From: Botryllus schlosseri
Taxonomy: Eukaryota
Assembly: GCA_051294905.1 (NCBI GenBank)
Contig: CM119371.1
Coordinates: 10,976,001 to 11,040,000, forward strand
DNA length: 64,000 nt
Direction of reading: 5' to 3'
Shown here one piece after another: positions 2,488-48,583 of this stretch (position 1 is the first letter of the stretch; every line of letters begins with the position of its first letter). The position numbers and the translations under genes are program-made. The notes beneath the pieces are model-generated. The model ran no database searches. It was not told the DNA's origin and worked only from the letters and a program-made list of their open reading frames with translations.

Positions 2488-3052
2488 CATTGTAGATTGC
2501 CAACCCACGGATAGATGCGCAAGATGTGAGTCACGGATGAATGCACCGACTCACGTACTGCAGAGCCGGCTAAAAGCAGCAAACTTTGTAGTCCTAGAGC
2601 TGGCGATCCAAGCGTCCAAATTTGATGCATCTGGTCTTTATCGTAAGCTATTGATGCACTAATTCCGAAAATACAAATTAAAATCTCGTCAGGGCAATGT
2701 AACTGCTCCAAAATAGCCATTTAAGGCCGACTGTTCTGAAAAGTGAGAGCGCCGCAGCAGTATGACCACAACAATGACCAATTACGCCCAGCGATTGTTC
2801 AGAACAATGCCGATTGCCAGACTTTCACGACAATTTTGGGATGGTATCATTGCCTGGAAATATACTTTTATTGCGGAGTCAGTGCGACACTAGCTTTCGA
2901 TTAGGACCATACATATCAAATTTCGACGCTTAGATCGCCAGCTATAGGATTATCAATTCTGCTGCTTTTAGCCTGCTCAGCAGTTCGCTTCTCGGCGTAT
3001 TCAATCGTGAGTAACGTGTTGCGAATCAATCCGTTGGTTAGTAATCTAATAA
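2488..3052. repeat. Old imperfect palindrome (foldback MITE-like)
   Basis: 2557-2650 (GGCTAAAAGCAGC...GCTGGCGATCCAAGCGTC...TCGTAAGCTA) matches the reverse complement of about 2890-2985; similarity extends both outward and inward. Confidence 0.7.
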
Positions 3053-4364: not shown

Positions 4365-4770
4365 GCATTATTATGATATTGCTGCGCACGAATAGCGAAT
4401 AGGCCTGTGTATCGACTATCGTATTCTTGGTGGTTACGTACTCAATATATGGCTACTTCAGACTTGCCTCTGACTTCTCACTAGAATTAGAAAAGGACTC
4501 ATAGCGTCATTGATATATTCGAACATCTTCCATACCAGCGGAGTATAGCGAAGTCGGCAAAATGCCGCCAGGTAATACTTAATACGTACCAATTTGTTTC
4601 AACAGAGCTGCATCACCTCAACAATATAGCTCTAACTAATGTATCCTTCTTGCGTCACAAGTTATAAGTTCACTCGCTTCAATCCGTTTACGGTCGAAAT
4701 GAGCCTCCACTTCCCGTGTGTCACAGAAGCCTCAGAGTAAATTGCCAGCATACCATCAGCGTCACTCGTC

Positions 4771-7700
4771 AGTAGTGTAATCGATCGCTGGCACATTGGT
4801 GTTTTTTGCATGGGCTCTTATGGGCGCGGTCGCACATCGTATGGAAAACTCGTGGTGGCATATCGTACTTTTTGACCCCCCTCTCGGTCGCACATCGTAA
4901 TGCGTTCTTATGGGTGCGCTCGCATGTCGTACTTTCAGGTATAGGTATCTCTCGCATATCGTATTGAAAACTCGTGTTGGCACATCGTACTTTTAGGTAT
5001 AGGCATCTCTCGCACGTCGTACTTTCGCGTATAGGCTGCGGCGATGATGTGCCTGTCATGTATTCTTACGCGATCGCTGGTGATTCACCATGTGTTCTTA
5101 TGGATGCGTCGGCATATCGTACTTTCGGGTATAGGAATCTCTCACACGGTGTTGAATATGTATCAAGTAAATAGTCATGCGAATGAACGTTTGTTAATGT
5201 GTATATCGTAAATTATTATATATGATATCGTAGTTCAGTCGCGACAAATGACCGATCGTGTTCTAACTCTTTCCTCGCTATTGATTGCTACGTAACCTGA
5301 ATATAGGCTGCGGCGGTGATTCGCCTGGCATGTCATGTATTCTTACGGGAACTGTGGTGACTCGCCATGTGTTCTTATGGGTGCGGTCGTGAATCGCCCT
5401 TTCGGTATAGACATCTCTCGCACGGTGTGGAATATGTATCAGGTATATTGATCACGTGTGTCTTATGGCGGGGGTGGCAAGCGGCTATTGTCTTATTTCA
5501 TACGATGGTGGTTGCAAGCGGCTCTTATTTCCTACGATGGAGGTCGCAAGCGTCTCTTATTTCTTACGACGGTGGTCGCAAGCGGCTCTTATTTCCTATG
5601 GCGGGGGGTCGCAAGCAGCTCTTATGTCTTATGGCGTGGCGGCATGCGGCTATTGCGTCTTATGGGTGCGGCGGCATGCTAATGTTTTCAGGTATAGGCT
5701 CCGGTCGCATGATAGCGTTATGGAGATAGGGATCGGTCGCATGCTAACGTTATGGGTATGGGCCGCGGCGATGATGTGCCTATCATGTATTCTTACGAGG
5801 TCTCTGGTGATTCGCCATGTGTTCTTATGGATGCGGTCGCATATCGTACTTTCGGGTATAGATCGCGAAGTTTGCCACAGAGCCGGCGTAGACGGTGTTT
5901 CGAATACCAACAAATTGTCACTTATTTCTATTCTAGCCGTAATCCTTTGTGAAGTTAACGCTTATTCAAAAGGTGTGGAATATTTGTAAAATCCTACGAT
6001 CACCCACAAGATAACACCTCAGACATAGTCATCTTTCACGATTTGGTGTCATAGCCATACCGATCACTCACGCGGTTAAATTTTAGTAATCAGTTTGTCA
6101 CAGAACTGGATTTCACTGGTAAGATTTAATAAATACCGACTAACAGAACCATCAGTGTGGGTAACTTGAATAGCAACAAATTGTCACTTATTTCCGACGG
6201 GGAAATTCACTAATTCGCAGTGCATTGTGCGATTTTGAAAACCAGATGTTGGCGGTTGTATTTTGACCTGTGAGACCAACTAAATACGTCCGTTTTAGAA
6301 ATTCGGAGCGCGCACTATCGTATCGATTATTCCACTAATCCATTCGGTGCTATTACATTCAGCAGTATTCAGTATTCAGCAGCGACACGAAAAACGACCA
6401 ACAAATAACCGCGCTCGTAAATTAACACTTCAAAAAGTGTAGAATAGATTGCAAATCCCGCGATCGCTGACAAGATAATGTCTCGGGCATAACCATTTTT
6501 AGTGACTTGGTGTTACAAACATACCGATCGCTCACGCGGTGAAATTTTAGTAATCAGTTTGTCACAGAACTTGATTTCGCTGGTAAGATTTAATAAATAC
6601 CGACTAACAGAACCATCAGTGTGGGTAACTTGAATAGCAACAAATTGTCACTTATTTCCGCCCTAACCCTAATCCTTTGTGAGATTACCACATACTCAAA
6701 TAGATGCGAAATAATTGTAAAATCATACAATCTTTTTAGGAATATTACTTGACTTGACCAACTTTCGGCTCTGTTTTCGATTTCCACACAGTCGCTATAA
6801 GTTTCCACGCTTCTAGAATAGGATTGACTTCAGACACGTCATAAGAATCATGGTAATAATCAATCAATGTGTCAATTTACCAACTCGAAATCTCACTCGC
6901 GCTACAAGTGAAGCTGAATTGTGTCCGAATATGATAATTTACCACCGCTCAGCGCCAAACTGACTCTGTATAACAATATTACGCATGCGCGGTATTTCAG
7001 AATGGTATAATGTCATTAGCAGCAAATATTTCACAAACTTAATCGTTTACACGAATCAAAGCTAAAGTTGAAACGACAATATCAAGGTTTGAAACCTTAC
7101 AACTCGATCAGTGATTTTTTATTCAACTGTAAAATAAGTTAATATTCTGTAAGACACAACAATTATTGCTCGGGTAATGTGACATTGAGATTACCAAATT
7201 GTATATTGAGTATACGAGATTTGAATGTTTGACTAGTGATAGACTGAAAAATATCTCGCAAGAGAATCCATGTGTTATAATGCAGGCTATCGTGATACAA
7301 ACAAATTCAATACGGAATACCTATTAACCAATTGGCCCCCAACCCGAGATTCGAGTGTTCGATCAGTGATCGATAAAAAAATATTTTCATGTATACCAAC
7401 TCTTGCGTTGTGGTGAAGGGTGTTACGATATGAGCAAAGTTTTAATAAACACCATTATCAGCACCCCGATTGAGAAAAAACTTGATTCGTATGTATGAAA
7501 AGTGTTTGATTGGGAATTTATTTATTTCTCACAATCCCGCCACTGTTTTGAGGACTGGTATTATATGATTATTAAATAATATTTCACAAACTCAAGCCAC
7601 TGTTTTTGAGGAATGGTATTATATGGTTATTAAATAATATTTCACAAACTCAACCCTAATCCTAAGACTTGAGAGAAATCACGTATTCGCTTGATGATAA

Positions 7701-8925
7701 CACGCATGCGACAAAAAACATCACCGCGATTTTGTAAACTGATCATACTAATCAGGGTATTAACCATCACGCTTCTAGAATAGGATTGACTACTAAAGGT
7801 AAATTCAGATAATCCAAAATGAAATATCTCAACTTTGACATAGTCTGAATTGAAATAGATTGACAAGAATACCTACCAACTTTCACCCACTCACATTTCG
7901 AAATTATACACACATTGATTTGAAACAAGTAATGTAACATTACAACTCTATTCCCGATCCAGCTTTCCGTTTGTCAAAGAGACATTTTAACATCTTACCA
8001 TACTCAAAAGAATTATTCACAACATTAACAAGTGTTTAAAATCTAGTTTTCACTTACTGGACTATATCACTACTACTCGCAAACTTGAATTAATTCATCC
8101 TTGTGGTATTCGTATGACCGATAATTTTTATTCAACTGTAAAAGTCGTTACTAATCTATAACACAAAGTAATCACTACTCGGAAAATCTAGTTTTCACTT
8201 ACTTGACTATATCACTACAACTCGCAAACTTGAATTAATTCATCCTGATGGTATTCGTATGACCGATAATTTTTATTCAACTGTAAAAGTCGTTATTAAT
8301 CTATAACACAAAGTAATCACTACTCTGTGCATACGACGAGATTTGAATACTCGGTCTATGATAGCAATTCGCACAAGTGAATCCAAGACATCGGGCTGTG
8401 AGAAAATCTTCACCACATTGACCTACTGCCTTATCCAACGTACTCAGAGTAAGTAGACACGATTTCAGTAATATACACAATCGTTACAACTGTAAACTTT
8501 ACTAATCAATCTCGGTCGTATTGACATATCACAGACCTGTGTTTTTTTTTATTCCTTCAGTAAAATGTAGTCGTATTAATCTGACGATAACGTGCACACA
8601 TAAGAAACATCACCGACATTTTATAATTGATCACCCGACTTAGGGTACCAATAAACATTACCGGGATTTTTATAAACTAGCCATATTACTCAATACATCT
8701 ATCAATATCAGAACGCAAAATCCAATACCGAAAGAAAAGTACTTTTTTAGTTTAATAAAAATCAAATCATTCGTCTTCATCTTGTGAATTGTCACGCACC
8801 CAACTAATATCATACCAAATAGTTATTTACAACAACCAAGACATAGAAAATTTGTTTTGGACGTTTCGATTTTATTACTGGATGTACTGATCCCTTCGCT
8901 TCATACAATCTAGATTTAAACACCG
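4771..8925 (+). repeat. Left TIR of the Maverick, 4155 bp
   Basis: Reverse complement of 17037-23380 (excluding the hAT insert). Homology stops at ...TAGATTTAAACACCG (8925). Mirrored ORFs 6590-6808/19152-19370 and 7642-7866/18094-18318 translate identically. Confidence 0.97.
5455..5665 (+). repeat. About 30-bp GC-rich minisatellite in the TIR (mirror at about 20295-20500)
   Basis: Units resembling GCAAGCGGCTCTTATTTCCTACGATGGTGGTC, repeated about 6 times. Confidence 0.85.
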
Positions 8926-11661
8926 GGCACACGGTAGGGTTAGGAAGTGTTTTGTTTAAGAGCGCGCGGGAATGTTTTTTATGCCTATACAACTAAACGA
9001 ATACCCATCGGCCTGCTTACTACATTTTAAAGATTCTCTCCACTATTGTGTATACAAGAATATACTTCTCTTAGTAAGCAATTTCTCGTGAATTCAGAAG
9101 CACTTTGACGCGTGTTAACTTCTATATTAGGTGACAGTATCATTTTCATGTCTGATAATGTTACTTGTCAAGGTGATACAAACGTAAGCTCAAACTACTT
9201 TAAAATTTAAAGTCTTACCAAATTTTATCTAAAACTGAAACTGTCGAGTACCGATAAAGTAGTCTAAAACCTAGTCACTTTTTACGTGGAGGGAGAACAT
9301 AGCGAAGTACTTGTACATTTTGCAGTACTCAAGTATAGGTTTGGCCTGCTTGCGCTATACTTAATGAAGTGATTACCTATTTACACTGCATCTACTTCGA
9401 TTTCAGAGTTTTTCGCTTTTTCCAGCAAACTATACCTTCAATACTTACTTTTCAACTAACTGTGAAATCATTACTTCTTGTACTTTAGTAGGACTTTACT
9501 GCTACAATGTACTTTTTTCAGTGGACCAGCGGTCTTGGTGAGTGTTGTCAGTTTCATCTATATCCTACGAAAAGCTACTTGAGCACTTCACGGGTTCGTA
9601 TCATCGCAAATAATATATTCTAAACATGTTTAGATAGCGAGGAGTTGTAATTATAGGTGAAAGGGACAAATTTTATCTAAAACTGAAACTGTAAAGTACC
9701 GATAAAGTGGTCTAGAGTATTTTTTATGTTTATTCAACTCAACGAATATCTTCATTTGGCCTGCTTACTACATTTTAAAGATTTTCTACGCTAGAAAAAT
9801 CGCTGTAACATGATAAGTATATTATAATTAATCTTATCAGCGCGGCATAGTACATTCGAGTAAATTCATTAAATTAGCTTATGTTTATGAAATTATTTGG
9901 TTTCTGAATTCTATCTAAAACTGAAACCGACGAGTATCGGTAAAAGGACTTATTACGTGCAGGGAGGCGATAGCGAAGTACTCGTGCATTTTGTACTACT
10001 CAAGTATAGGTTTTATCTGCTTGCGCTAAACTTAATCAAGTGATTAACTATTTACACTGCATCTACTTCTATTTCAGAGTATTCGGTTTTCAGGTAAACT
10101 ATACCTGCAATACTTTTTAACTCACTCGGAAATCATCACGTCTTGTACTTTACTAGAAATTTACTGCTACTAAATGTTGAAACGTACTGTTTTCAGCGGT
10201 CTTGATGAGTGGTGCTAGTTTCATCTATATCCTACGACGCATTTTCGCGCTGCAGAATGACTTATCGCAATAAAAATAACAAAAATACTTCGAGAATTTG
10301 CGAACTCTCACTGCGCAATATTTGAGTTTTACGAAGTAACCTTCAAAGTGAGCCTACATCTTGGATGTTATCCAAAACCACATACAATTTCGCTTCGAAC
10401 GAGGTATCCTTTAAAATAAGGTAGAAGTAGTCATTTCCGAGTAAGTAAAACGTTAGTACTCTAGGTATATTACTGTTTAATACTCTAGCTATCATGAAGT
10501 TGATGTACTCCAATATCATAAGGACTTGAGACTATGTGGTGCATCTAGGCAAAAAACCTACTTGGGTATTCTCAAGAAGTACGAGTGCTCAAGTATAAGT
10601 TTTCAAACCATTACCTTGACAAAATTTTCAGAATAGCAACTTTTGCGTAAAGTCTGTCTTGCATTTAGTTGCCGGCTCTGAAAGCAAGCAAAGTTTGTGG
10701 TATTTGCGCAACATCGAAATTTGTACACTTCACGCGGGGCCTACGATACTTATGGCCTAATATGGCACATTACACATGCTGGATATAAGAGGCCGACACT
10801 CCCAATCAGACATCACGACTGACTCAATGATTGCTTGCGATCTCACTTCTCGATACCAGACGCCTCGCCATACAAGTCTAATAAAGTATTATAACAGACA
10901 AAATTAGTTCTTTCAGATGAAACAACCCAATTAAGAGCCAAGTGACAGCGTCGCAATGTATTTAATCACCAACACACAAGAAGACAATGTAACGAGAATC
11001 CCCAACTTGGGCATGTAAAAGTATTTTACAGTATGGTAAAACGAATTCAAGCACGTGAAAATGAAATTCATTCATTTGGAACTACTCTGAAACACACACG
11101 TGGAGCTTGGCCATAGAAGTTCTGCAAGTGAAATGAATTACTGCAGTAAGCAAACTACGTCTTGCTCAACTGCCGCTTTTTAAAGTCCTTCACAGCATCT
11201 TTTCTCATATAAACGGACAACCGGTTTCAGAGTATACCCGCGTCGATCGCATCGCATCTATATCAACGGTTAACCACATGAAATAACAATATGCTCTTGT
11301 ATATCGAAATGTGTGCTTTGGAAATCGGCGGATATTGTGTGTCCTGGTGTGTGTGTCTGTGTGTGTCCCGGTTCGTGCTTTAGCCTCCCACAGAGTCAAT
11401 ATGTTGAAATTAGCAACCTCCATGACTTTGGTAACTGCTTGGTACACGGATAATGGTTGAATTTATGTCCCCGTCGCGCTAACAAATCCGGGTTACTTGT
11501 GAGTTTTCTCACACATGTTTACTATATTGTGTCACTCTTTATTGGTCAATACATATCCCACCGTTCAGTTTGAAATCGGAAACCCGAGAAAGTATTAACC
11601 GGATCCGGATATCAACTCTGAATCGACAAACCAATGAACAATATTCAAACATGTTACACCC

Positions 11662-13237
11662 CCGTGTTTCCATGAAAATAACAAGACATTACACATCCAG
11701 TATACTTCACGATTGTTCATAGATACCAAGTATTCGCGTAAAGGAGGTGTGTGACATTACATACATCATGGATAACATCATGGCCGGCACTACAAGCATC
11801 ATGGATTACAAATTCATGTTCTGAAGTCTCATACATGCACCGACTCTGTACATTCAATGTGGGGGTAGCTGACTTGGAGACAAAAAAACACACATATTTG
11901 ACCGTAACATGGTCTTAGTATGAACCGACATGCATTCGACTTGTGGAAAATGTGTCGCACACTATTTCACCGAGATTACAACCCTTTCACGGTTCACAAC
12001 TTGATATATCAACTTCACAGGGTAGTTCGGATTCTCAGGTAGACTTGAATCGTGATCCGGATCTCGGAATATAGTAAAATCGGGGTATGTAGTTTAATTA
12101 CTCACTTACTACTCTATATGTTGGTGGTGGTCATACCTGCAAACTTTTTTTGGTATGAACGTAGTGTTTCACCTTACATCAGTTGGTTCAATGTATGTAC
12201 CGGGTTGTGAAAACTGTCGCTGTTTTGACTATGTGTCACAATTAATACTAAATACGAGAATTCGTTACTCGTCGGAACGCCGCAGTCAGACATCGTTAAC
12301 AGCGATTCCGTGTATGGCAATCTTGAGTTCAATTGCGGTTTTGTGATGTTAACCAAGCGGCTGTGTTTCTGCGGTGTGAAGACTGAATTCGTGTTGTTTC
12401 CCCGCAAGAGTGCGATGTCTATTTCACACCTAGAGCAATTATAAAATGCATCTTCGAAACTTTTGGTCTAGTTCATCCGCTTGCATTTTGAAACGGACCA
12501 TCACGACAAGACTCTAACCCACCACATCCGTGGTTTCAGTTGATCATATCGAAGAATATCATGTCCATCCGTGTTACCACCCACAGATTTCGCCATCCTC
12601 ACACGGTAGTGCTAAGACACAGACAAGTGCGGTGGTGGAAATATTGAAAATGAGAAAGCAGACCTTGGTGTCATTTGATTTGGATTTTACACCCGATGAA
12701 CCCACCATTCGTACTGCGCATTGGGATGAGGATTCTATCATTGATGTCGAGGGAAAGGAGATGTACAGATTTGTTGGTGTCGTGAATATTCAACGAAAGT
12801 CGGGGTATATGGTTGTGCATGGTTCGCGTATTTGACTGTGGAGATATCGCTATATATAACGTGCTGTTCACCGTATCGATAGGACCAACGAATATCCGTG
12901 AAAGGGTTGTAATCTCGGTGAAATAGTGTGCGACACATTTTTCCACAAGTCGAATGCATGTCGGTTCATACTAAGACCATGTTACGGTCAAATATGTGTG
13001 TTTTTCTGTCGCACCTATAGGACGCCCCCTTGCCAAATCATCCACCCATTGCCGCACCTATAGCACACCCATTGCCACATCATCTGCGTTACATCATCAA
13101 GTGCCACGCCTATAGTGCCACATCATCACCGCATTGATTGCCGCATCTATATGGTGCACAGCGCCGCATCAACCAGCGCGATGTCGATTGGAAGTATACT
13201 GGATGTGTAATGTCTTGTTATTTTCATGGAAACACGG
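11662..13237. repeat. Two concentric internal inverted repeats in the Maverick core
   Basis: Perfect 47-bp pair at 11662-11708/13191-13237; about 110-bp pair at 11884-11992/12896-13005 differing by one indel. Confidence 0.93.
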
Positions 13238-13239
13238 TA

Positions 13240-14256
13240 TTTGATATGTTCCATTGTCATAATGTCCTACACCTGTGAACCAATCTTCAAGTTGCGCATT
13301 CAATGTTTAGCTCGGTAATTCCGTTATTAAAGTTGAGTATGCATAGGTACGTGCTACGCTCCCGCAAAGGTCGGTATGGAACTGCGTTAGTTTAAAAGTT
13401 GTTCAATCATGAAATGCGTAACAAAATTTGACATGGTGCATTGTCATAATGTCTTACAACTGCGTACCGAGTTTCAAGGTGGGGAGTCGATTATTAATAT
13501 GGTAATTCCGTTATTAAAGTTGACTATGTATAGGTACGTGCTACGCTACGGAAAAACAGATTTAGCCAAAAGTCTGTATAGAACTGCGTTGGTTTTAAAG
13601 GTGTTACATCATGGAATGCCTGACGAAATTTGGTATGGTGCATTGTTATTATGTCCTACAACTGCGTACCAACGTTCAAGGTGAGAATTTAATGTTTAAC
13701 ATGCTAATTCTGTTACTAAAATTGGTATCGGTATATGCTATGTTCACGAAAAACAGATATGCGTAAAAGTCGATATTCGACTGCGATAGTTTCAAAGGTG
13801 TTCCATCATTAGATGTGTGATGAAATTTAGCATGGTGCATTGCCATAATGTCCTACAACTACGTATCAAGTTTAGAGTTGGGATTCAATGTTAAGCATGG
13901 TAATTCCGTTATTAAAGTTGACTATGTATAGGTACGTTCTATACGCTCCCGCAAAACAGATGTACGCAAAAAGTCGATGTAGAGCCGCGTTAGTTTTAAA
14001 GTTGTTCCATTATGAAATGCGTGAGGAAATTTGGTATGCTACATAATCACAATGTCCTACAACTACGTACCAAGTTGCAAGGTGAGGAGTCACATATTAG
14101 CTTGGTATTTCTGTTATTAAAGCTGACTATGTATATGTATACGCTACCGAATACAGATTTAGGCAAAAGTTGCTATAGAACTGCGTTAGTTTTAAAGTTG
14201 TTCCATCATGAAATGGTTGATGAAATTTGGTATGCTGCATAATCACAATGCCCTGG
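13240..14256 (+). repeat. Tandem array of about five diverged 190-204 bp units
   Basis: Motif CATAATGTCCTACAACT recurs near 13257, 13445, 13647, 13844, 14048 and 14244. GGTAATTCCGTTATTAAAGTTGA and GAACTGCGTTAGTTTTAAA also recur. Confidence 0.9.
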
Positions 14257-17200
14257 AGCTCATTTAGATACGTTTTTAATGTAGTTTCACGTTCTAGTTG
14301 TTTTGATGTAAGGAGAAAATCATTCGATAACTCGATACAACTAGTTAACGCGCGTTGATGTAACTTTCCTCATTTGTATGCATAGCCTACGCGCAATTGG
14401 TTACCGAATTTTTCGATTAGTTTATATTCCGTATTTTATTTAAAACTGAAACTGTTAAGTACTACTTAAAGTGTTATAAAATGTGAAAAAGTGTACAAGT
14501 AGAATTATTACTATGTCATGAATAAGTAGTTTACAAATTCATACGATTTTTCTTTTTGCGTTCCGGGATAAAATGTAATTTTTCTCTCTTTTTTATTTTT
14601 TATTTTTTCAATAAAATTAGTATTCATTTTACAAAAAACGTCGTGTAAAGATAAAGTACTTGTACATTTCGTAGTGCTCAAGTATAAGTTTTTAATGTAT
14701 TAACTTGATAAAATTTTCAGAATAGAGACTTTTGCGTAAAGTCTGTCTTGCATTTAGTTGCCAGCTCTGAAAGAAAGCAAAGTTTGTGGTATTTGCGCAA
14801 CATCGAAAATCGATAAAGTAGTCTAAAACCTAGATACTTTTTACGTGGAGGGAGTACATAGCGAAGTACTTGTACATTTTGGAGTACTCAAGTATAGGTT
14901 TGGCCTGCTTGCGGTATACTTAATGAATCATTCCTGTGTCATAAACACTTGAGTAGTTGGTGCGTGTAGACAAAAACCTACTTGAGTACATAATTTTTAT
15001 TTTCCATTAAAATTTGTATTCATTTTACAAAAACGCCGTGTAAAGTTAAAGTACTTGTACATTTCGGAGTACTCAAGTATAGGTTTTGTTAGCGTATTAT
15101 ATGCTCAGTATATTATATGTCGAGAATTGTGGAGCATTTATGCGGGTCTCCGGGGTGCTCGTCATTGAGTGTCCGTGTTGGGCGATAAGTTTAATTCGCA
15201 AAATTAGTGTGTTCAAATCAGGCCTGTCGCCAATATAGTGATGTCGCATTAGCCCTAAATACACATAATAGAATATCAAGGAAAAGTATCATCTAACGTA
15301 TAATGAATGTTATTTATTTCTCGGAAGCAAGTTATTATCAAAGCATAGTGGTCAAAATTATCGTAGAGCAATACCGATTTTGCGTAAATTCCGTTATGCG
15401 TCTGACTACGTTACTAGGGATTATGTAGTTAGTTAGGAAATTAGGAGTCCTATCTTCCCAATCGGTATGGAACAACATCAAAAGCATCACAAAGCAATAT
15501 CATAACATAATAGAAAATCTGTCGATTCTAGCCAAGGTAAGTTTTGACGCAGCAATCATAAGTCGTAAAATGTGGAAACTGCAGAAACCGTAACTTGTAC
15601 ACATAAAATCAAGTTTAAAAAATATGGACGGATGATATTGGTCCTAAATACACATAATACAATATCTGAGAAAAGTATCAAGATGCGGCAATCAATGCAG
15701 CGATGATATAGCAATGGATGGATGATGTGGCACTATAGGCGTGACGCTTGATGATGTGACACAGATGACGTAGCAGATGAATGTTCCCTTATGGGATGAA
15801 AATGGGCGTGGCAATTAGGATGACGTGGCGCTCTCTGATTGGCCTGCAACAAAGTTCCTTACCCTCACTACTATTGAGGCCGTTCACACTTCCATTTGTG
15901 TGCATTGGAATCAACTTTTATCAAAATACACCAACCAAAACTCTGTCAACAAAAGGAGTTCGTGTATCACCTAAAAATAGTACATTGAACGCTCTCTCAT
16001 TCGAAATTTCATGCTGGTGACGGCATATTTTGTGATACGATTGTTGATATACAATGTTCTTTCCAATTTGCTACTACTTGCTGACGATTACCCCTGACGA
16101 GTGTCAGCCGAAAATATTCGGGTTCATTTCAATATGAATATACTATTTAATTGTAAATTGAAGTTCTGTACCTCCAAGAAGCTCTTCTGAAAAATAATTA
16201 TTTAGCGTAGTGACATTTTGTGACCAACGAATGCAAATCGATCATGATATTACATTATACGCTTTCGTCAACATAACGACTTGGCGTAGAAACACTTTCA
16301 CGTTTTTTGAATAACTGGATTCTCGAGACTTGTTACTTGTACGATGTACCGTTGGTATGCAACTATAACGACCATTTTGTATGATAGTATGTTTTAGCTG
16401 TATTGTTGCGAGGACAATCATATGATGACTCAGCACTTTTCGTTAGCAAAGTAAATTGTTTTGTGCGTTAGATTTGTGGAAAGTAAGTCGAATACATACT
16501 CTTTTGTGGAAGTAACTGTATTACTGTGATATCGTTGGTAGGTATCTCAAGCAGTCACCGTGGTTTTAATTTCGAAAGATGTCGCGATGTCGGTACAATG
16601 TTTTCTAAAAGTCAAACTCGGATGGATATGACTGTGTAGGACTTACGATAAACATTATACTCATACAACTTTGTTACAAGAACTATGATATTTCTGTAAG
16701 CACTATAGTTGTGTGTTGGATTATTTGAATATTTAGATGCGTGACCATTCGTGTAAAAAACGACATCAAAACAGTTTGCAGAGTCTAACCAATCATTTAG
16801 TTTCGTAGTGTGAGGATATCGAGTAAAGTCGACTACTTTGTGTGATGTAAATATCCTTCGTACTTTTGTAAGAGTTGTGAGGATGATCATTCGTATCCTA
16901 CAAAGTAACTAGTTGATACTACAAAATATTGAATGACCGCTAACACACTGAGTTCCTAACCCAAGATAGTGAAAATTGTTTATTGTTAGACTAACATAAT
17001 TCGTATCCAGCAAAACGATAGATACCGAAGGTTCGACGGTGTTTAAATCTAGATTGTATGAAGCGAAGGGATCAGTACATCCAGTAATAAAATCGAAACG
17101 TCCAAAACAAATTTTCTATGTCTTGGTTGTTGTAAATAACTATTTGGTATGATATTAGTTGGGTGTGTGACAATTCACAAGATGAAGACGAATGATTTGA

Positions 17201-20200
17201 TTTTTATTAAACTAAAAAAGTACTTTTCTTTCGGTATTGGACCTTGCGTTCTGATATTGATAGATGTATTGAGTAATATGGCTAGTTTATAAAAATCCCG
17301 GTAATGTTTATTGGTACCCTAAGTCGGGTGATCAATTATAAAATGTCGGTGATGTTTCTTGTGTGTGCACGTTATCGTCAGATTAATACGACTACATTTT
17401 ACTGAAGGAATAAAAAAAAACAGGTCTGTGATATGTGAATACGACCGAGATTGATTAGTAAAGTTTACAGTTGTAATGATTGTGTATATTACTGAAATCG
17501 TGTCTACTTACTCTGAGTACGTTGGATAAGGCAGTAGGTCAATGTGGTTAAGATTTTCTCACAGCCCGATGTCTTGGATTCACTTGTGCGAATTGCTATC
17601 ATAGACCGAGTATTCAAATCTCGTCGTATGCACAGAGTAGTGATTACTTTGTGTTATAGATTAGTAACGACTTTTACAGTTGAATAAAAATTATCGGTCA
17701 TACTAATACCATCAGGATGAATTAATTCAAGTTTGCGAGTTGTAGTGATATAGTCAAGTAAGTGAAAACTAGATTTTCCGAGTAGTGATTACTTTGTGTT
17801 ATAGATTAGTAACGACTTTTACAGTTGAATAAAAATTATCGGTCATACGAATACCACAAGGATGAATTAATTCAAGTTTGCGAGTTGTAGTGATATAGTC
17901 AAGTAAGTGAAAACTAGATTTTAAACACTTGTTATTGTTTTGAATAATTCTTTTGAGTATGGTAAGACGTTAAAATGTATCTTTGACAAACGGAAAGCTG
18001 GATCGGGAATAGAGTTGTAATGTTACATTACTTGTTTCAAATCAATGTGTGTATAATTTCGAAATGTGAGTGGGTGAAAGTTGGTAGGTATTCTTGTCAA
18101 TCTATTTCAATTCAGACTATGTCAAAGTTGAGATATTTCATTTTGGATTATCTGAATTTACCTTTAGTAGTCAATCCTATTCTAGAAGCGTGATGGTAAA
18201 TACCCTGATTAGTATGATCAGTTTACAAAATCGCGGTGATGTTTTTTGTCGCATGCGTGTTATCATCAAGCGAATACGTGATTTCTCTCAAGTCTTAGGA
18301 TTAGGGTTGAGTTTGTGAAATATTATTTAATAATCATATAATACCATTCCTCAAAAACAGTGGCTTGAGTTTGTGAAATATTATTTAATAATCATATAAT
18401 ACCAGTCCTCAAAACAGTGGCGGGATTGTGAGAAATAAATAAATTCCCAATCAAACACTTTTCATACATACGAATCAAGTTTTTTCTCAATCGAGGTGCT
18501 GATAATGGTGTTTATTAAAACTTTGCTCATATCGTAACACCCTTCACCACAACGCAAGAGTTGGTATACATGAAAATAATTTTTTATCGATCACTGATCG
18601 AACACTCGAATCTCGGGTTGGGGGCCAATTGGTTAATAGGTATTCCGTATTGAATTTGTTTGTATCACGATAGCCTGCATTATAACACATGGATTCTCTT
18701 GCGAGATATTTTTCAGTCTATCACTAGTCAAACATTCAAATCTCGTATACTCAATATACAATTTGGTAATCTCAATGTCACATTACCCGAGCAATAATTG
18801 TTGTGTCTTACAGAATATTAACTTATTTTACAGTTGAATAAAAAATCACTGATCGAGTTGTAAGGTTTCAAACCTTGATATTGTCGTTTCAACTTTAGCT
18901 TTGACTCGTGTAAACGATTAGGTTTGTGAAATATTTGCTGCTAATGACATTATACCATTCTGAAATACCGCGCATGCGTAATATTGTTATACAGAGTCAG
19001 TTTGGCGCTGAGCGGTGGTAAATTATCATATTCGGACACAATTCAGCTTCACTTGTAGCGCGAGTGAGATTTCGAGTTGGTAAATTGACACATTGATTGA
19101 ATATTACCATGATTCTTATGACGTGTCTAAAGTCAATCCTATTCTAGAAGCGTGGAAACTTATAGCGACTGTGTGGAAATCGAAAACAGAGCCGAAAGTT
19201 GGTCAAGTCAAGTAATATTCCTAAAAAGATTGTATGATTTTACAATTATTTCGCATCTATTTGAGTATGTGGTAATCTCACAAAGGATTAGGGTTAGGGC
19301 GGAAATAAGTGACAATTTGTTGCTATTCAAGTTACCCACACTGATGGTTCTGTTAGTCGGTATTTATTAAATCTTACCAGCGAAATCAAGTTCTGTGACA
19401 AACTGATTACTAAAATTTCACCGCGTGAGCGATCGGTATGTTTGTAACACCAAGTCACTAAAAATGGTTATGCCCGAGACATTATCTTGTCAGCGATCGC
19501 GGGATTTGCAATCTATTTTACACTTTTTGATGTGGTAATTTACGAGCGCGGTTATTTGTTGGTCGCTTTTCGTGTCGCTACTGAATACTGAATACTGCTG
19601 AATGTAATAGCACCGAATGGATTAGTGGAATAATCGATACGATAGTGCGCGCTCCGAATTTGTAAAACGGACGTATTTAGTTGGTCACACAGGTCAAAAT
19701 ACAACCGCCAACATCTGGTTTTCAAAATCGCACAATGCACTGCGGATTAGTGAATTTCCCCGTCGGAAATAAGTGACAATTTGTTGCTATTCAAGTTACC
19801 CACACTGATGGTTCTGTTAGTCGGTATTTATTAAATCTTACCAGTGAAATCCAGTTCTGTGACAAACTGATTACTAAAATTTAACCGCGTGAGTGATCGG
19901 TATGGCTATGACACCAAATCGTGAAGGATGACTATGTCTGAGGTGTTATCTTGTGGGTGATCGTAGGATTTTACAAATATTCCACACCTTTTTGAATAAG
20001 CGTTAACTTCACAAAGGATTACGGCTAGAATAGAAACAAGTGACAATTTGTTGGTATTCGAAACACCGTCTACGCCGGCTCTGTGGCAAACTTCGCGATC
20101 TATACCCGAAAGTACGATATGCGACCGCATCCATAAGAACACATGGCGAATCACCAGAGACCTCGTAAGAATACATGATAGGCACATCATCGCCGCGGCC

Positions 20201-20718
20201 TATACCCACAACGTTAGCATGCGACCGATCCCTATCTACATAACGCTATCATGCGACCGGAGCCTATACCTGAAAACATTAGCATGCCGCCGCACCCATA
20301 AGACGCAATAGCCGCATGCCGCCCCGCCATAAGACATAAGAGCCGCTTGCGACCCCCGCCATAGGAAATAAGAGCCGCTTGCGACCACCGTCGTAAGAAA
20401 TAAGAGCCGCTTGCGACCTCCATCGTAGGAAATAAGAGCCGCTTGCAACCACCATCGTATGAAATAAGACAATAGCCGCTTGCCACCCCCGCCATAAGAC
20501 ACACGTGATCAATATACCTGATACATATTCCACACCGTGCGAGAGATGTCTATACCGAAAGGGCGATTCACGACCGCACCCATAAGAACACATGGCGAGT
20601 CACCACAGTTCCCGTAAGAATACATGACATGCCAGGCGAATCACCGCCGCAGCCTATATTCAGGTTACGTAGCAATCAATAGCGAGGAAAGAGTTAGAAC
20701 ACGATCGGTCATTTGTCG

Positions 20719-22901
20719 CAGTGATGAGCGGAGTCTGCTTTTCCAGACTCCGAGTCCCTCCGACAACTTTGGTCTGTGAGGCAAAGTCCCTCCGACTCCG
20801 GGCAGCTCAATCCCAGACTCCGAGATAACCCGAAGAATCTTGTCCAGTCTCCGAAACATCCATAACGGTAGAGGTAGCTATTCAAAAACATTGTCGAAGA
20901 ATCCCAATGATAGCAACTCATAGTTCCTCTGACAGCTTCTGCTTCAAAGATGAAGCCTCCTCATCAAACTTAGGTTTCACCGTATATCTGGATGGCAAAA
21001 CGTCGTCTGCACTCACTTTGCCATGCATTTCCCCAATATCGATCAAGGCATCAGCCATCTGCTTGAGGTCCTTCCCCTCAACAGAGCTCAGTGGTCTGAT
21101 ATCATGGGATACAAAGGAGACAACACCACGGCAAAACTTCTCCTTTGATTTCTCGCTTACTTTTTTGTTGGAAGAAAGAAAGGAGCTTATCTTCAACTGC
21201 GATCCATTCTTCTTACACGCTTCGATATGTCTTCGAAGATGCGACGTACCACTTGTCAACTTTTGTAAACATTGCAATTTTGATATTTCGCAAACCCAGT
21301 ATACTGGCCATTATTATCATGCATCAGAGTGAAATCCTTCCACACATCACTCTTTTTCTGCCTCTTTGTGGGTAACCCACTTGACCACGACGGAGGAAAA
21401 CCAGTCAGTCCGAACTAACTACCACTTACATCGACGATCACATCACAGGTTTCAGTAAATTAAGTTCCGCATCGCCATGAAACAGTTGATGGAGCTGCAC
21501 TAAACAGACTTGATGCATCACTGACGCACCGATCGACGCTCCTTGGAGTTTACTAAATGACTATTGACTTCCAATTTTAAAGCTGATACATGATATCTGG
21601 AATTTGGAGTTTGAGACAGACCAGCAGCAGAAACTTGTTTGCGGTGCTGATTTTTCTTATCACATCAAAGTCATTTCTCAATCAAAACAAACATTACATG
21701 ACGCAAATTCAGAAGAGTTCTGGATGACTGATTACGTCTGTCAATATTGAAGGAAGCGTAGTTGATGCGAGTTGCGAGCAGAGCAAAGCAGACAGTTGTA
21801 GTTATTTAGTGTAGCTGTTCAGAAATTCGGAATATTTTGTTTTTACTGGGTAAGATCAGCTTACCTTAGTGATTTAGGTATTGTTGAAATCTTTGAAGCG
21901 GGCTTAGATGCTGGTATGCCCCTGTAAGCGGATCTTACTAGCGAAAATTCGTCGCAACGTCATTCAATCATTATAACACATTGTATAAGCTATTATTGTT
22001 TCAATCCAGAAACTTGCTTGTTGTATGTATATTTCTCACAGGTATAAAAGTAGTATTGATGTAACACTTATTATCGATATCTCTCACTGCAGAGTAGTAA
22101 AGTAGCAAAGTACGATGAAAGTTGCGAAAAGTTCTCACAAAAGTGGTATCGCATATTATCTCGTTTCAACTGATACCAACGTTGGGAATACATTTTCACA
22201 AAATGGACCTATTACTACGTTGAATGTCATCAGGATAATGGGATATATTCCGTTATGATCATGAACCTGCTGGAAGAATCAGGGTAGCTAAAGGATGTAC
22301 CATTGGGAAGCCGAAGCCCCGTTGTATGTTGCTGATTGTAAATGTTTCGCACAATTAATCGGGTAGCATGAAAATCAGTCACGAAACAAATACGCAAGGA
22401 GGAATGTGACTATAGAAGACTGCAATGACAGCAACATGGAAGATTCTGGAGATCTTATCTCATAATATGGTGACATTCAGCTGTGGATTCAAAGACTGCA
22501 TCTCAAGGCAGGGAGCAAATGATGCACTGCGGATGATATTGGGCGCCTTTAATTTTGTGAACTACAGACACTGCTCAACGAAAATGCCTTGCTAGATCAC
22601 TATGTTACTCTCCAGTCCCCAATTACAGTGCAGATGGCTGATTGCTATGCACTGGGCAATCATTTTTGCATGTTACCCGTCATATTACAACTTTACAAGG
22701 TGTCAACTGTCTGTGTTTTGGTTGGTAATCAATAGTGTCGTCCGGTCAGAGCTATCGAAAGATACCGGGGGCAAAACTTACAACACTCCGGTAAACTCCG
22801 GAAAAATATCTGTAGTAAACTCCGAGTCCACTCCGAGTATCACAAAATTGACAAAACTCCGCTCCGGATACACTCCGACTCCGCTCCGATGCTCATCACT
22901 G
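20719..22901 (-). mobile_element. Internally deleted hAT element (Hermes/hobo-like) inserted in the right TIR
   Basis: 11-bp TIRs CAGTGATGAGC/GCTCATCACTG; 8-bp TSD ATTTGTCG at 20711-20718 and 22902-22909. The left TIR keeps the empty site (CGACAAAT at 5242-5249). Subterminal ACTCCG repeats are present. Confidence 0.95.
20918..21310 (-). pseudogene. Truncated hAT transposase N-terminus: BED finger remnant plus Hermes-type DNA-binding domain
   Basis: CLQKLTSGTSHLRRHIEAC (BED-like) and SFVSHDIRPLSSVEG...LIDIGEMHGKVSADDVLPSRYTV (resembles the Hermes DxRPFxxVxG...LLPS segment). No catalytic domain follows. Confidence 0.85.
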
Positions 22902-24040
22902 ATTTGTCGCGACTGAACTACGATATCATATATAATAATTTACGATATACACATTAACAAACGTTCATTCGCATGACTATTTACTTGATACATATTCAAC
23001 ACCGTGTGAGAGATTCCTATACCCGAAAGTACGATATGCCGACGCATCCATAAGAACACATGGTGAATCACCAGCGATCGCGTAAGAATACATGACAGGC
23101 ACATCATCGCCGCAGCCTATACGCGAAAGTACGACGTGCGAGAGATGCCTATACCTAAAAGTACGATGTGCCAACACGAGTTTTCAATACGATATGCGAG
23201 AGATACCTATACCTGAAAGTACGACATGCGAGCGCACCCATAAGAACGCATTACGATGTGCGACCGAGAGGGGGGTCAAAAAGTACGATATGCCACCACG
23301 AGTTTTCCATACGATGTGCGACCGCGCCCATAAGAGCCCGTGCAAAAAACACCAATGTGCCAGCGATCGACTACACTACTCTCGTCAGCGGCAATTTGAA
23401 GCGTATCTCGCTGCGCCGATCACTTCATATCTGGAATACTTACAAGGGCACTTCTGTCTAATAAGGTATTTTGCAGTATTTCGCTTTTGTGACAGGTGGA
23501 TGCGATCCATATATTGCTGGAAACGGTTCGAGATTTCCTTTGATAACAGTGCAGCTATTTTGATCTATAGACATACAAACAAAGTATATTCTGAGAAAAA
23601 CTCTTTGAAAAACTACAACCGGTATAGCTTAGAAAAATAGGGATATGAACTTTAGAATGACATCAATAGACAGACACAGTTGTTGATAAGCATCTAACAG
23701 TGAACAATTTCTACCACAATTTGATCAGTTATAGCCACAAGGTAGGCACATAGTCACCTCGACTCTCGAACCATAATGATTTTACGCTTTTTAACAGCGG
23801 AAAAACGTTGAGCGGCAGTCTTATTTTATCCTTTAAAACCCAATATATTTTATGATTGCATTATCTGGGAACAGTACACTGTAAAAAATAAACCCGATTT
23901 ACCGCGAGTTGTTTGGAAGCACGGTAGCGAAACACATTGCGATAACAAAACCTTCCCGTAAGTCCATGGTAATTCAACTTACAGCCTTCCGGTAATCACA
24001 CTTTACGAGCAAAACGGTAATTTTAGAGATATCCTATACC

Positions 24041-46800: not shown

Positions 46801-48583
46801 ATACTCAAAAGGATATTTTAAAGATATTTTACAGTTTTTCGCGTTTGTGATGCGATCCATATATTGCTGGTAAGGCACAAGAAATTATTTCATAATATTG
46901 CACCTATTTTGATCTGAAGAGCTTCTTAGAGGTACAGAACTTCAATATACAATTGAATAGTATATTCATATTGAAAATAACCCGAATATTTTTGGCTGAC
47001 AGTCGTCAGGGGTAATCGTCAGCAACTAGTAGAGAATTGGAAAGAACATTGTATATCAACAATCGTATCACACACAAAGTATATTTTGAGAATAACGCGT
47101 TCTAAAACTACAACCGGTATAGCTTGCAAAAATAAGGATATCAACTTTAGCATGACATCAATAGCCACAGTCGTTGATAAGCATGAAACAGTGAACAATT
47201 TCTACCCCAATTTCATCATGTATAGCCACCAGGTAGGCACATAGTCACCTCGACTCTCGAACCATTATGATTTATCGCTTTTTAGCAGCGGAAAAGCATT
47301 GAGCAGCAGTCTTTTTTATCCTTTAAAATCAGCGATATTGTATGATTGCATTACCTGGAAACAGTCCACTGTGAAAAAATAACTCCGATTTACCGCGAAT
47401 TGTTTGAAAACACGGTAGCGTGACACTTCGCGATAACAAATCTTCTCGTCAGTAAATGGCAAATCAGCCTTCCGATAATCAAACTTTACGAGCAAAACTG
47501 TAATTTTACAGATTTCCCATCTCTGGTAGATTCAACTTACATTTCCCCGTACATTTGCGACCGAGACTGTAAATTATCCACTTACTGGGAAGGTCTGCAA
47601 GCTGTCTATGTATTTCATGATCACCCCTCTGCTTGTAAATTAATGGACGCCAGTATTATTTTTATTAGAAGGCATGAAACATCATCACAAAGATACAATA
47701 CCATTAAGCCTGAAAATGATACCAATCAATCACTCTGCTAAATGCTGTGTCCACCATTGCAAACTATAAGCTTTCCGATTGATCTCTATCCGTTCCGATT
47801 GTTTCTCTTCGTCCTTGTTCCTCAGCCAATGTAAGTATAGTACCTTGCAGTTCTACTAAAAAATAATTCACGCATTATTCGCTAACTTGTAAATGAAATT
47901 ATACAGACTAAGACAGGGGCGGACAACCCATGACCCACGGACCAAATGTGGCCCACGGAATGGTCTACTGTGGCCCGCGAGATAATCCTCGAATTTAGTT
48001 ATACCAGCAAGAAAATTTATTACCCAGGTAAAATTGCAAGGCCAACCAAAATTTGATTACCCCGACCGCGAAATTTGGAGTGTTGATGACTAAAATATCA
48101 GTTACGACGAATTGTCGTATAGCCAGGGGTCCGCCACATTTTTCGTAGATCTTCGTATATGACCATAAAGCAGAATATATTGTGGCAGATTCATTTGACT
48201 TGAAATTTTTCTTAGCTCTTCGCGCGATTTACTGCCACTCATAGCATTTGGTAGTGAAGCCCCCTCCTGAAAATTTAAATTACGCTTAATTTACAGAATT
48301 GAATCTAACCATTTGCAATTGGGAGAGAACGTGTTGTCTAACATACGATATCGCATCTACGCTCACGGTGAGATCGTCGTCGATGAAACCTTTGTACAAA
48401 ATGATAGACGCATGTTCGGCGAAATCTCCGATACTGAAATGTCTAAGCGGCAAATAATCATGTTATTGCCAAATGAGCCCAGTTGTATACAGATGCGACT
48501 CGTAATATATACAAGTAACAATATTATTCATCAAATTTATTCATTAACTGATAATAAATTCCGTGCTTCTCGAGGCCAGGACA

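Follow-up and report, generated by a model that had tools for sequence, protein, structure and literature searches.

A 64,000-nucleotide stretch of the Botryllus schlosseri genome (GenBank assembly GCA_051294905.1, contig CM119371.1, positions 10,976,001 to 11,040,000 of the forward strand; hereafter the window, with its first base as position 1) carries at positions 4771 to 23380 a large inverted-repeat element, which very probably derives from the endogenous Maverick/Polinton viruses of this genome as an integrated, non-autonomous form that has since decayed and been altered by secondary rearrangement. The evidence lies in the ends of the element, in a genome-wide family of gene-poor palindromes bounded by the same termini, and in a gene-bearing Maverick whose terminal sequence is common to all of them.

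By direct reading, the left boundary consists of one copy of a target site duplication (TSD), CTCGTC, followed by AGTAGTGTAATCGATCGC, and the left arm opens AGTAGTGTAATCGATC. At the right boundary the arm tail reads ...GATCGACTACACTACT, and ...ACTACT is followed by CTCGTC. The duplication is perfect over its 6 bp, and its flanks are unique. The terminal pattern occurred twice in the window and in none of 100 shuffles, and the ends are therefore not due to chance. The left arm (4771-8925), which contains subterminal tandem repeats with a 32-bp period, is mirrored by 17037-20718 together with 22910-23380, with a complementarity of 98-100% depending on the segment; over ~4.15 kb, 41 substitutions (~1.0%) separate the two arms. 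The AGTAGT/ACTACT ends, the perfect CTCGTC duplication and the near-identical 4.15-kb arms, all of which had been described in an earlier, sequence-only reading of this DNA, were thus confirmed. Two of its measurements required adjustment. The length of 16.4 kb is correct once a nested 2,183-bp hAT transposon is left out of the count, the physical length being 18,610 bp, and the interior (8926-17036) indeed lacks a long open reading frame (ORF), the longest stop-to-stop frame measuring 105 codons instead of the 101 aa reported. The element yielded 67 ORF fragments of at least 50 aa, none with a Pfam hit below E 0.05, and neither these fragments nor a comparison with the ORFs of the autonomous Maverick described below revealed any trace of a polymerase, rve integrase, capsid, ATPase or protease gene. 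The view that the element is not simply a Maverick full of decayed polymerase, integrase, ATPase or capsid genes was therefore upheld. An Rfam scan of the whole window gave 0 matches.

Gene-poor palindromes and an autonomous Maverick

The 495.5-Mb assembly (219 contigs; ~0.25 Mb of it was read directly) was searched with the terminal pattern AGTAGT, 4-8 bases, GATC, 2-3 bases, TCGTGA. The pattern was found 519 times in forward and 504 times in reverse orientation, mostly as facing pairs, versus 1 and 1 for the reversed control. This corresponds to about 500 terminus pairs (~511, with some autonomous copies included), which at ~14 kb each may, as a rough figure, make up more than 1% of the genome. 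For C1 and the start of C2, 37 same-terminus pairs were listed. Their median length was 14.2 kb; 17 of them fell within 13.2-14.6 kb and 22 within 13-16 kb. Eight copies of this family (family 1) were fetched whole (C7b, C14, C5 and E1 to E5), along with the inner 9.5 kb of another, L041. A canonical copy is a ~13.4-kb near-perfect palindrome with ~6.3-kb arms, which constitute ~93% of the copy, and a ~0.9-kb centre. Four copies are clean. Of these, E1, E2 and E5 are 13.4-13.7 kb long, with arms of 6.2-6.5 kb that are 99.9%, 98.5% and 99.5% identical, respectively, and centres of ~0.9 kb, and C14 has 6.5-kb arms at 99.9% identity; nested insertions are carried by the remaining fetched copies.

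All 10 of the elements read, the autonomous copy included, have AGTAGT.../...ACTACT ends, and a perfect 6-bp TSD flanks seven of the nine gene-poor elements, window counted (CTCGTC, TACGTC, AACGAC, AACGTT, GTCGGC, CACGTG and CATGTA); six of these seven have a central CG (NNCGNN-like). Within copies the arms are 98.5-99.98% alike, whereas between subfamilies alignment often fails except in conserved patches. Of the whole element, conservation is highest in the inner ~600 bp of the arms, in which ~5% of the sites vary among three subfamilies versus 35-50% elsewhere. This inner region showed no codon periodicity, and a periodicity scan of arms and inner arms disclosed no second coding region. When C7b, C14, C5 and E1 to E5 were checked for long ORFs, only nested elements were found (a BEL/Pao-like long terminal repeat [LTR] retrotransposon in C5 and a hAT in E4). 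The C5 copy (L027-L029, C5:23596500-23624000), whose retrotransposon carries rve and DUF7041, has CTCGAG and GACGCA as its flanks and ~1 kb of Maverick-like sequence just beyond its right end; the locus is possibly a recombinant between two insertions.

Midpoints were sampled in six longer same-terminus pairs, of which five were gene-poor and one contained long ORFs. An autonomous Maverick (the helper) is located at C1:34868426-34884932. It is 16,507 bp long, has 763-bp terminal inverted repeats (TIRs) at 98.95% identity, ends in AGTAGTTATATAGATCGGTCGTGA, and is flanked by the TSD CACGAA (6 bp, central CG). A 359-aa ORF matches rve (E 2.6e-16) and Chromo (E 4.4e-8) and represents the integrase, and a P-loop NTPase (ATPase) is also encoded. 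For the 1213-aa ORF, a homologue of the protein-primed polymerase pPolB, nine homologues were obtained, the best eight at E 1e-133 to 1e-155 and four of the nine carrying PF03175; those that bear names are from gastropods. A 432-aa ORF gave 134 matches, to homologous "F54H12.2-like" proteins from many animals, and its structural model (pLDDT 87.7, pTM 0.87) matches the double-jelly-roll major capsid proteins of SGIV, PBCV-1, Sputnik and mavirus (E 1e-12 to 1e-16), so that this ORF is predicted to encode a double-jelly-roll capsid protein. A protease was not identified in the helper, and protein P0004 had no match among PDB sequences.

The helper polymerase matched 38 scored loci (of 374 candidates) at 77-100% identity, and at 22 of the 38 the main match was free of internal stops, with open frames of 1129-1300 aa; Mavericks are therefore abundant in this genome. 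A whole-genome scan with Pfam PF03175 (DNA_pol_B_2) gave 0 hits. The helper polymerase ORF itself was missed by PF03175, yet its homologues carry this domain, and the negative scan was a matter of model insensitivity and is no evidence that Mavericks are absent.

Sequence common to the helper and the gene-poor copies is confined to the terminal ~0.8-1.05 kb of the helper, as a mosaic of 70-97% identity that was seen in nine of nine copies. An autonomous Maverick with only the terminal part in common is what the sequence-only reading had called for. Moreover, a 165-bp stretch that lies just inside the left TIR only of the helper is present in both arms of five of the nine gene-poor elements. 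Helper ORFs outside the TIR had no protein-level match in the arms, except for nested or flanking elements at the C5 locus.

The original description of Polintons reportedly set out a rule of 5'-AG ... CT-3' termini. The gene-poor elements have AG...CT termini with TIRs, a 6-bp TSD, and ends in common with an autonomous element. The terminal motif and the subterminal ~0.8-1 kb are likewise those of an autonomous Maverick/Polinton, from which these elements differ in having none of its defining genes, arms of 4-6.5 kb, and nothing Maverick-like beyond the terminal kilobase. Maverick TIRs measure hundreds of nucleotides and the TSDs 6 bp in a published account (PMC8969392). Since the gene-poor elements have none of the genes that characterise an autonomous Maverick, they are classed as derivatives only, and it is in this form that the earlier assignment to a non-autonomous, Maverick/Polinton-type element stands, with the ends, TSD, target and terminal sequence common to a gene-bearing Maverick.

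Composition of the interior of the window copy

The 8.1-kb interior had been taken for the core of the element. Comparison with the genome indicates instead that it is a mosaic of nested foreign DNA and inner right arm, made up of an arm of a second palindrome family (family 2), a fragment of a short repeat (family 3) and the inner part of the family-1 right arm. The features are as follows, with a strand given only where one was assigned.

4765-4770: left copy of the TSD, CTCGTC, matching 23381-23386
4771-8925: left arm, 4,155 bp, of a family-1 gene-poor Maverick derivative (inverted-repeat detection)
8926-8932: 7-bp filler GGCACAC at the putative deletion junction (family-1 homology stops at 8925, and family-2 homology begins at 8933)
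8933-15872: complete arm of family 2, a ~16-kb AGTAGT-ended palindrome, from its centre to its ...CACTACT terminus (genome matches)
11207-13010: module within the family-2 arm, homologous (70-76%) to the family-1 inner arm plus ~0.9-kb centre
12518-12835, plus strand: small orphan ORF, 105 codons stop to stop, in the copy held by the family-2 arm
13381-14254: 197-bp tandem repeat array, 4.4 copies, within the family-2 arm
15873-15878: ATTGAG, immediately following the family-2 terminus (GTCGAG in the short repeat)
15876-16187: end fragment of the family-3 short repeat, 312 bp, cut on the left by the family-2 terminus
16188-17036: further inner part of the family-1 right arm, deleted on the left-arm side (matches of relatives)
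17037-20718: section of the right arm mirroring 5241-8925 (inverted-repeat detection)
20719-22901: non-autonomous hAT transposon, 2,183 bp, splitting the right arm (ends, TSD and Pfam)
22910-23380: terminal section of the right arm (inverted repeat and direct reading)
23381-23386: right copy of the TSD, CTCGTC (direct reading)

In each genome search the best 40 (or 150) candidates were scored. The window alone spanned the 8925/8933 junction among the best 40 of 1620 candidates, and it alone spanned 16187/16188 among the best 40 of 4632 candidates. The left 300 bases of the left-junction query matched family-1 arms, and the right 293 bases matched a different repeat at very many loci at 97-99% identity. 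Relative to the canonical ~6.3-kb arms, the left arm is truncated at 8925, and the arms of relatives run past the homologous point. On the right side, the match of all 40 scored relatives began at 16188 and continued across 17037 into the arm, and copy E3 is collinear across 17037; 17037 is therefore not a physical junction, and the right arm reaches 16188. Thus, of the two boundaries that had been proposed as features of the family, 8925 is a one-off among the best candidates and 17037 is no boundary at all. The closest relative of the window arms is L041, at 97% identity, with full canonical arms and a 914-bp centre.

The family-2 portion was traced through the palindrome L040 on C8, to both arms of which window positions 8933-13972 (~5 kb) are 98% identical. 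The L040 arms differ at 1 of 4,959 positions and are joined by a ~43-bp loop, and in other loci the match continues to the ...CACTACT terminus at 15872, ~8.05 kb from the centre. A ~1.1-kb piece present in at least 12 other copies is missing from the family-2 arm of the window at 15501/15505. Within the module at 11207-13010, a 115-bp inverted repeat (11879-11993 and 12896-13010) encloses a 902-bp centre-like stretch. The L040 loop (C8:8072501-8082500, ~5004-5046) contains degenerate telomere-like units (CCTAACCCTACC ACCTAA TACTAA; TTAGGG-like), and the deletion breakpoint of the window falls within the family-2 loop (window 8933-8962).

The family-3 repeat unit is at least 623 bp long; all of the other 39 scored loci (from 2183 candidates) were 98% identical over query positions 4-315. 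Its right end adjoins the family-1 arm exactly where L041 is uninterrupted. The ATTGAG that follows the family-2 terminus is probably a mutated TSD copy of the family-2 insertion, in which the central-CG target GTCGAG would have undergone two transitions. A second piece of the family-3 repeat is found in the window at 46913-47072. The ends of this repeat are not AGTAGT, its copies are 98% alike, and it has the highest read-contig depth of the whole stretch.

A single ~14-kb deletion ending in the family-2 centre best explains this mosaic. In the proposed sequence of events, the short repeat would have inserted into the inner right arm, and the ~16-kb family-2 palindrome would then have inserted into the short repeat. 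The deletion would subsequently have joined the left arm at 8925, via the 7 filler bases, to the family-2 loop, removing half of the nested palindrome together with the family-1 centre and the inner parts of both arms; the hAT would have split the right arm as a separate event. Hairpin or cruciform cleavage breaks a palindrome at its tip and would give a break at the position observed in the window. Giant palindromes are likely hotspots of breakage, of which the break at a palindrome centre in the window copy is an example. The odd architecture of the window copy is thus secondary, and this copy is an ordinary wreck of its family. It is doubtful, moreover, that the element was recently integrated, as had been suggested, given arms ~1% apart, three nested insertions and a large deletion.

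The hAT element at 20719-22901 has the ends CAGTG.../...CACTG (CAGTGATGAGC), which form short TIRs starting with CAG, and an 8-bp TSD, ATTTGTCG, at 20711-20718 and 22902-22909. Its 130-aa ORF (20918-21310, minus strand) matches Pfam DBD_Tnp_Hermes at E 9.4e-7, the remnant of a Hermes-type DNA-binding domain. The TSD length, the CAG-type TIRs and the transposase remnant together place it among the hAT transposons. A related hAT copy (88-95% identity) lies inside the palindromic element E4 (C1:16430100-16448400).

Origin and mobility of the palindromes

Mavericks are regarded as viruses with a second life as transposons, whose replication and movement have seen little experimental testing. For the gene-poor elements, the protein-primed polymerase of the helper would carry out replication and its rve integrase would carry out insertion, both in trans. 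The arms are alike within copies and the subfamilies are divergent, so that the arms do not evolve independently and something must re-synchronise them; re-synchronisation within copies is a strong inference from these comparisons. One Maverick end may have given rise to the palindromes through copy-back (snap-back) template switching, in which a polymerase turning back on its template would make a palindrome out of a single viral end, and the occurrence in both arms of the 165-bp stretch from the left-TIR side of the helper is in keeping with such an origin. Thereafter, a displaced single strand could snap back over 6 kb (snap-back or panhandle) and so keep the arms identical. For protein-primed strand-displacement replication, a panhandle in which the displaced strand pairs its inverted ends has been proposed and has been invoked for restoring terminal homology (PMC11886824). 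The copy-back origin and panhandle homogenisation are less certain than replication and integration in trans, and growth of TIRs by a panhandle or template switching, which the sequence-only reading had put forward, is plausible.

Family 2 looks like the product of a second fold-back on a family-1-like template, because its arm comprises an inner arm and a centre followed by 115 bp from the start of the opposite arm. Another same-terminus pair, 20 kb long, proved at its midpoint (L048, C2:3714994-3717994) to be a tight palindrome centre, in which 91-aa ORFs at 1047-1319 and 1683-1955 mirror each other; this suggests additional variants whose centres have been re-folded as in family 2. Canonical copies measure 13.4-13.7 kb, family 2 ~16 kb and the helper 16.5 kb; that this narrow range reflects a constraint on length, such as encapsidation, is speculative. 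Together, strict palindromy, arm identity within copies despite the deep divergence of subfamilies, and a narrow, helper-like size are difficult to reconcile with ordinary cut-and-paste decay and point to a single-stranded snap-back intermediate.

A more specific proposal, which is possible but which we put forward only tentatively, is that the palindromes are integrated satellite or defective-interfering genomes of an animal polintovirus, of copy-back origin, re-mirrored in each round, held close to the helper genome in length (13.4-16 kb versus 16.5 kb) by packaging in the helper capsid, and encoding one small protein in the loop, their sole unduplicated part. If true, Mavericks would have their first described satellite-like parasite, and the "gutless" helper-dependent virus genome would have a natural counterpart in animals. 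Snap-back defective genomes exist in adenovirus. The palindromes share with snap-back or copy-back defective viral genomes an identical replication end at either extremity, the loss of viral genes and, presumably, dependence on a helper; such genomes are transient in infected cells, whereas those described here are integrated and inherited, form subfamilies and number in the hundreds. Transpovirons (PMC5499653) are also linear relatives of the Polinton class that bear TIRs, carry few genes and need another virus, but they are not palindromic. Butterfly Polintons (bioRxiv 10.1101/2025.02.07.637071) have ~2-kb gene-bearing TIRs and include polB-less yet mobile variants. They resemble the present elements in their unusually long TIRs and in spreading without a polymerase of their own; their TIRs, however, hold capsid and protease genes within gene-rich elements, whereas the present arms, at three times that length, are non-coding. 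Searching the open literature by phrase retrieved no gene-less Maverick derivatives beyond a remark on Tlr1, and Repbase entries may exist.

Several points weigh against the assignment to a Maverick derivative mobilised by a helper, or against parts of the history given above. No TSD was found at C5 or E4, two of the nine gene-poor elements. The first 24 bases of the window element (...GATCGCTGGCAC) differ from those of the helper (...GATCGGTCGTGA), the window carrying a variant of the motif. Mobilisation in trans is deduced from the shared ends, TSD and target. The helper polymerase (L054:85-3723, minus strand; C1:34876484-34880122) has unusual residues at presumed motifs A and C, and ExoII-like and motif-B-like strings are present. 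These motifs were read by eye, uncertainly and without alignment to characterised enzymes, and the helper copy examined may be inactive. The uniqueness of the window junctions, scored on the best 40 candidates, is strong but not exhaustive, and the order of nested events is the most parsimonious reading and not a demonstrated history. At the level of reads, the evidence on the assembly of the palindrome consists of short contigs. Finally, chromosomal gene conversion could account for the identity of the arms and is a live alternative.

According to this last alternative, the elements are Maverick-derived, but their arm identity results from chromosomal gene conversion or hairpin repair and the palindromes themselves from chromosomal fold-back. 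We consider it rather unlikely. Arm identities of 98.5-99.98% within copies versus 50-90% between subfamilies would follow from such conversion, and in C7b the arms have remained 99.9% identical around a 5.9-kb insertion in one arm only. However, insertions into one arm (the window hAT, E3 and C7b) have been neither copied nor erased, the palindromic form is common to hundreds of dispersed, TSD-bearing copies, which argues that it transposed as a palindrome, and family 2 has the appearance of a second fold-back round on a family-1-like template.

It is very improbable that a 4.15-kb TIR plus an 8.1-kb core is the architecture of a recent satellite transposing as such, as the sequence-only reading had it. 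The perfect TSD, the ~99% identical arms and the interior free of long ORFs do agree with that version. It is largely refuted, however, by the canonical relatives, which have 6.3-kb arms, by the junctions, either of which the window alone spans among the best-scoring candidates, and by the resolution of the "core" into a family-2 half palindrome (97-99% to many loci), a short-repeat fragment and family-1 arm.

Equally little credence can be given to a foldback-type cut-and-paste transposon (P/Galileo-like or Mutator/Foldback-like) whose resemblance to Maverick ends is coincidental. Foldback and Galileo elements also have long, internally repetitive arms and little or no centre (PMC3573991, PMC4168063), and a P-superfamily transposase remnant is present in the centre of copy C14. 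Against this, the TSD is 6 bp in seven of the nine copies. The TSD of Foldback is 9 bp and that of Galileo 7 bp. The P-like element in C14 is independent, its four other copies being without arms, and a Maverick that encodes capsid, integrase and polymerase has the same terminal 0.8-1 kb, the same motif, an equally long TSD and a central-CG target. A 7-bp, P-like TSD was itself excluded at C14, where the seventh base differs. The likeness to Foldback-like elements (Drosophila FB and Galileo) therefore extends to very long repetitive arms, a small or absent middle and a preponderance of non-autonomous copies, but not to superfamily or TSD length, nor do those DDE cut-and-paste elements have the 13-16 kb and virus-like ends of the present family. 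In structure the elements are foldback-like; in ends, TSD and helper they are non-autonomous Mavericks.

An assembly artefact at this locus is very improbable: long palindromes are hard to assemble, and four public runs over 8400-16700 gave only short contigs at very high repeat depth with none listed as bridging a junction, but the arms differ at 41 positions, the hAT with its own TSD occurs in one arm only, the matching outer TSD lies in unique flanks, and palindromes built in the same way are present at many loci on many contigs.

If the Maverick assignment is correct, the family keeps only the terminal kilobase of its helper and would define the cis-acting sequences that suffice for Maverick mobility, and it would offer a natural, marked substrate for the self-synthesising model.

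A small conserved reading frame and further observations

The description of the element as gene-less holds for replication, integration and capsid genes. It does not extend to a small conserved ORF of ~105 codons, which is held in the ~0.9-kb centre of canonical copies and in the homologous module of each family-2 arm. Its last ~70 codons are conserved across the family, and all 10 elements keep the final ~68 free of stops; in C7b, two stops occur further upstream of the conserved part. The position of the stop codon is common to eight of the 10, C14 and L041 reading on to a stop two codons later. Pairwise dN/dS values were 0.12-0.48 in 34 of 36 pairs (the exceptions being 0.75 and 0.99), and substitutions were in excess at third positions. 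Indeed, the frame was free of stops in 147 of the best 150 copies from 1114 genomic candidates, a sample biased to conserved copies. The ORF belongs to no Pfam family and has no conserved start codon; a possible splice acceptor was seen upstream by eye. Its AlphaFold model (pLDDT 50) was unusable. A profile of the ORF, compared with 1.84 billion proteins, gave one real match, a 91-aa copy of the same family. Two other matches were spurious, being to WD40- and TPR-like repeat proteins.

The P-superfamily transposon of C14 (L024/L025, C14:18165500-18185499, element 7052-12500) lies at the boundary of arm and centre, has five near-identical copies in the genome, and carries remnants of the TNP-like RNase H and GTP-binding domains. 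A 301-aa ORF at C14 has no Pfam family; the gene family to which it belongs has 133 matches in the genome, many with an open frame. This ORF and the P-like transposase were considered as an autonomous partner of the palindromes and rejected, since they belong to an independent nested transposon whose other four copies are without arms.

Parts of the repeats were present in several seawater or marine metagenome runs and in runs of four other organisms. Upstream of the element, an inverted repeat of 178 nt lies at 2493-2670 and 2871-3048, with its halves 77% complementary and 200 nt apart.

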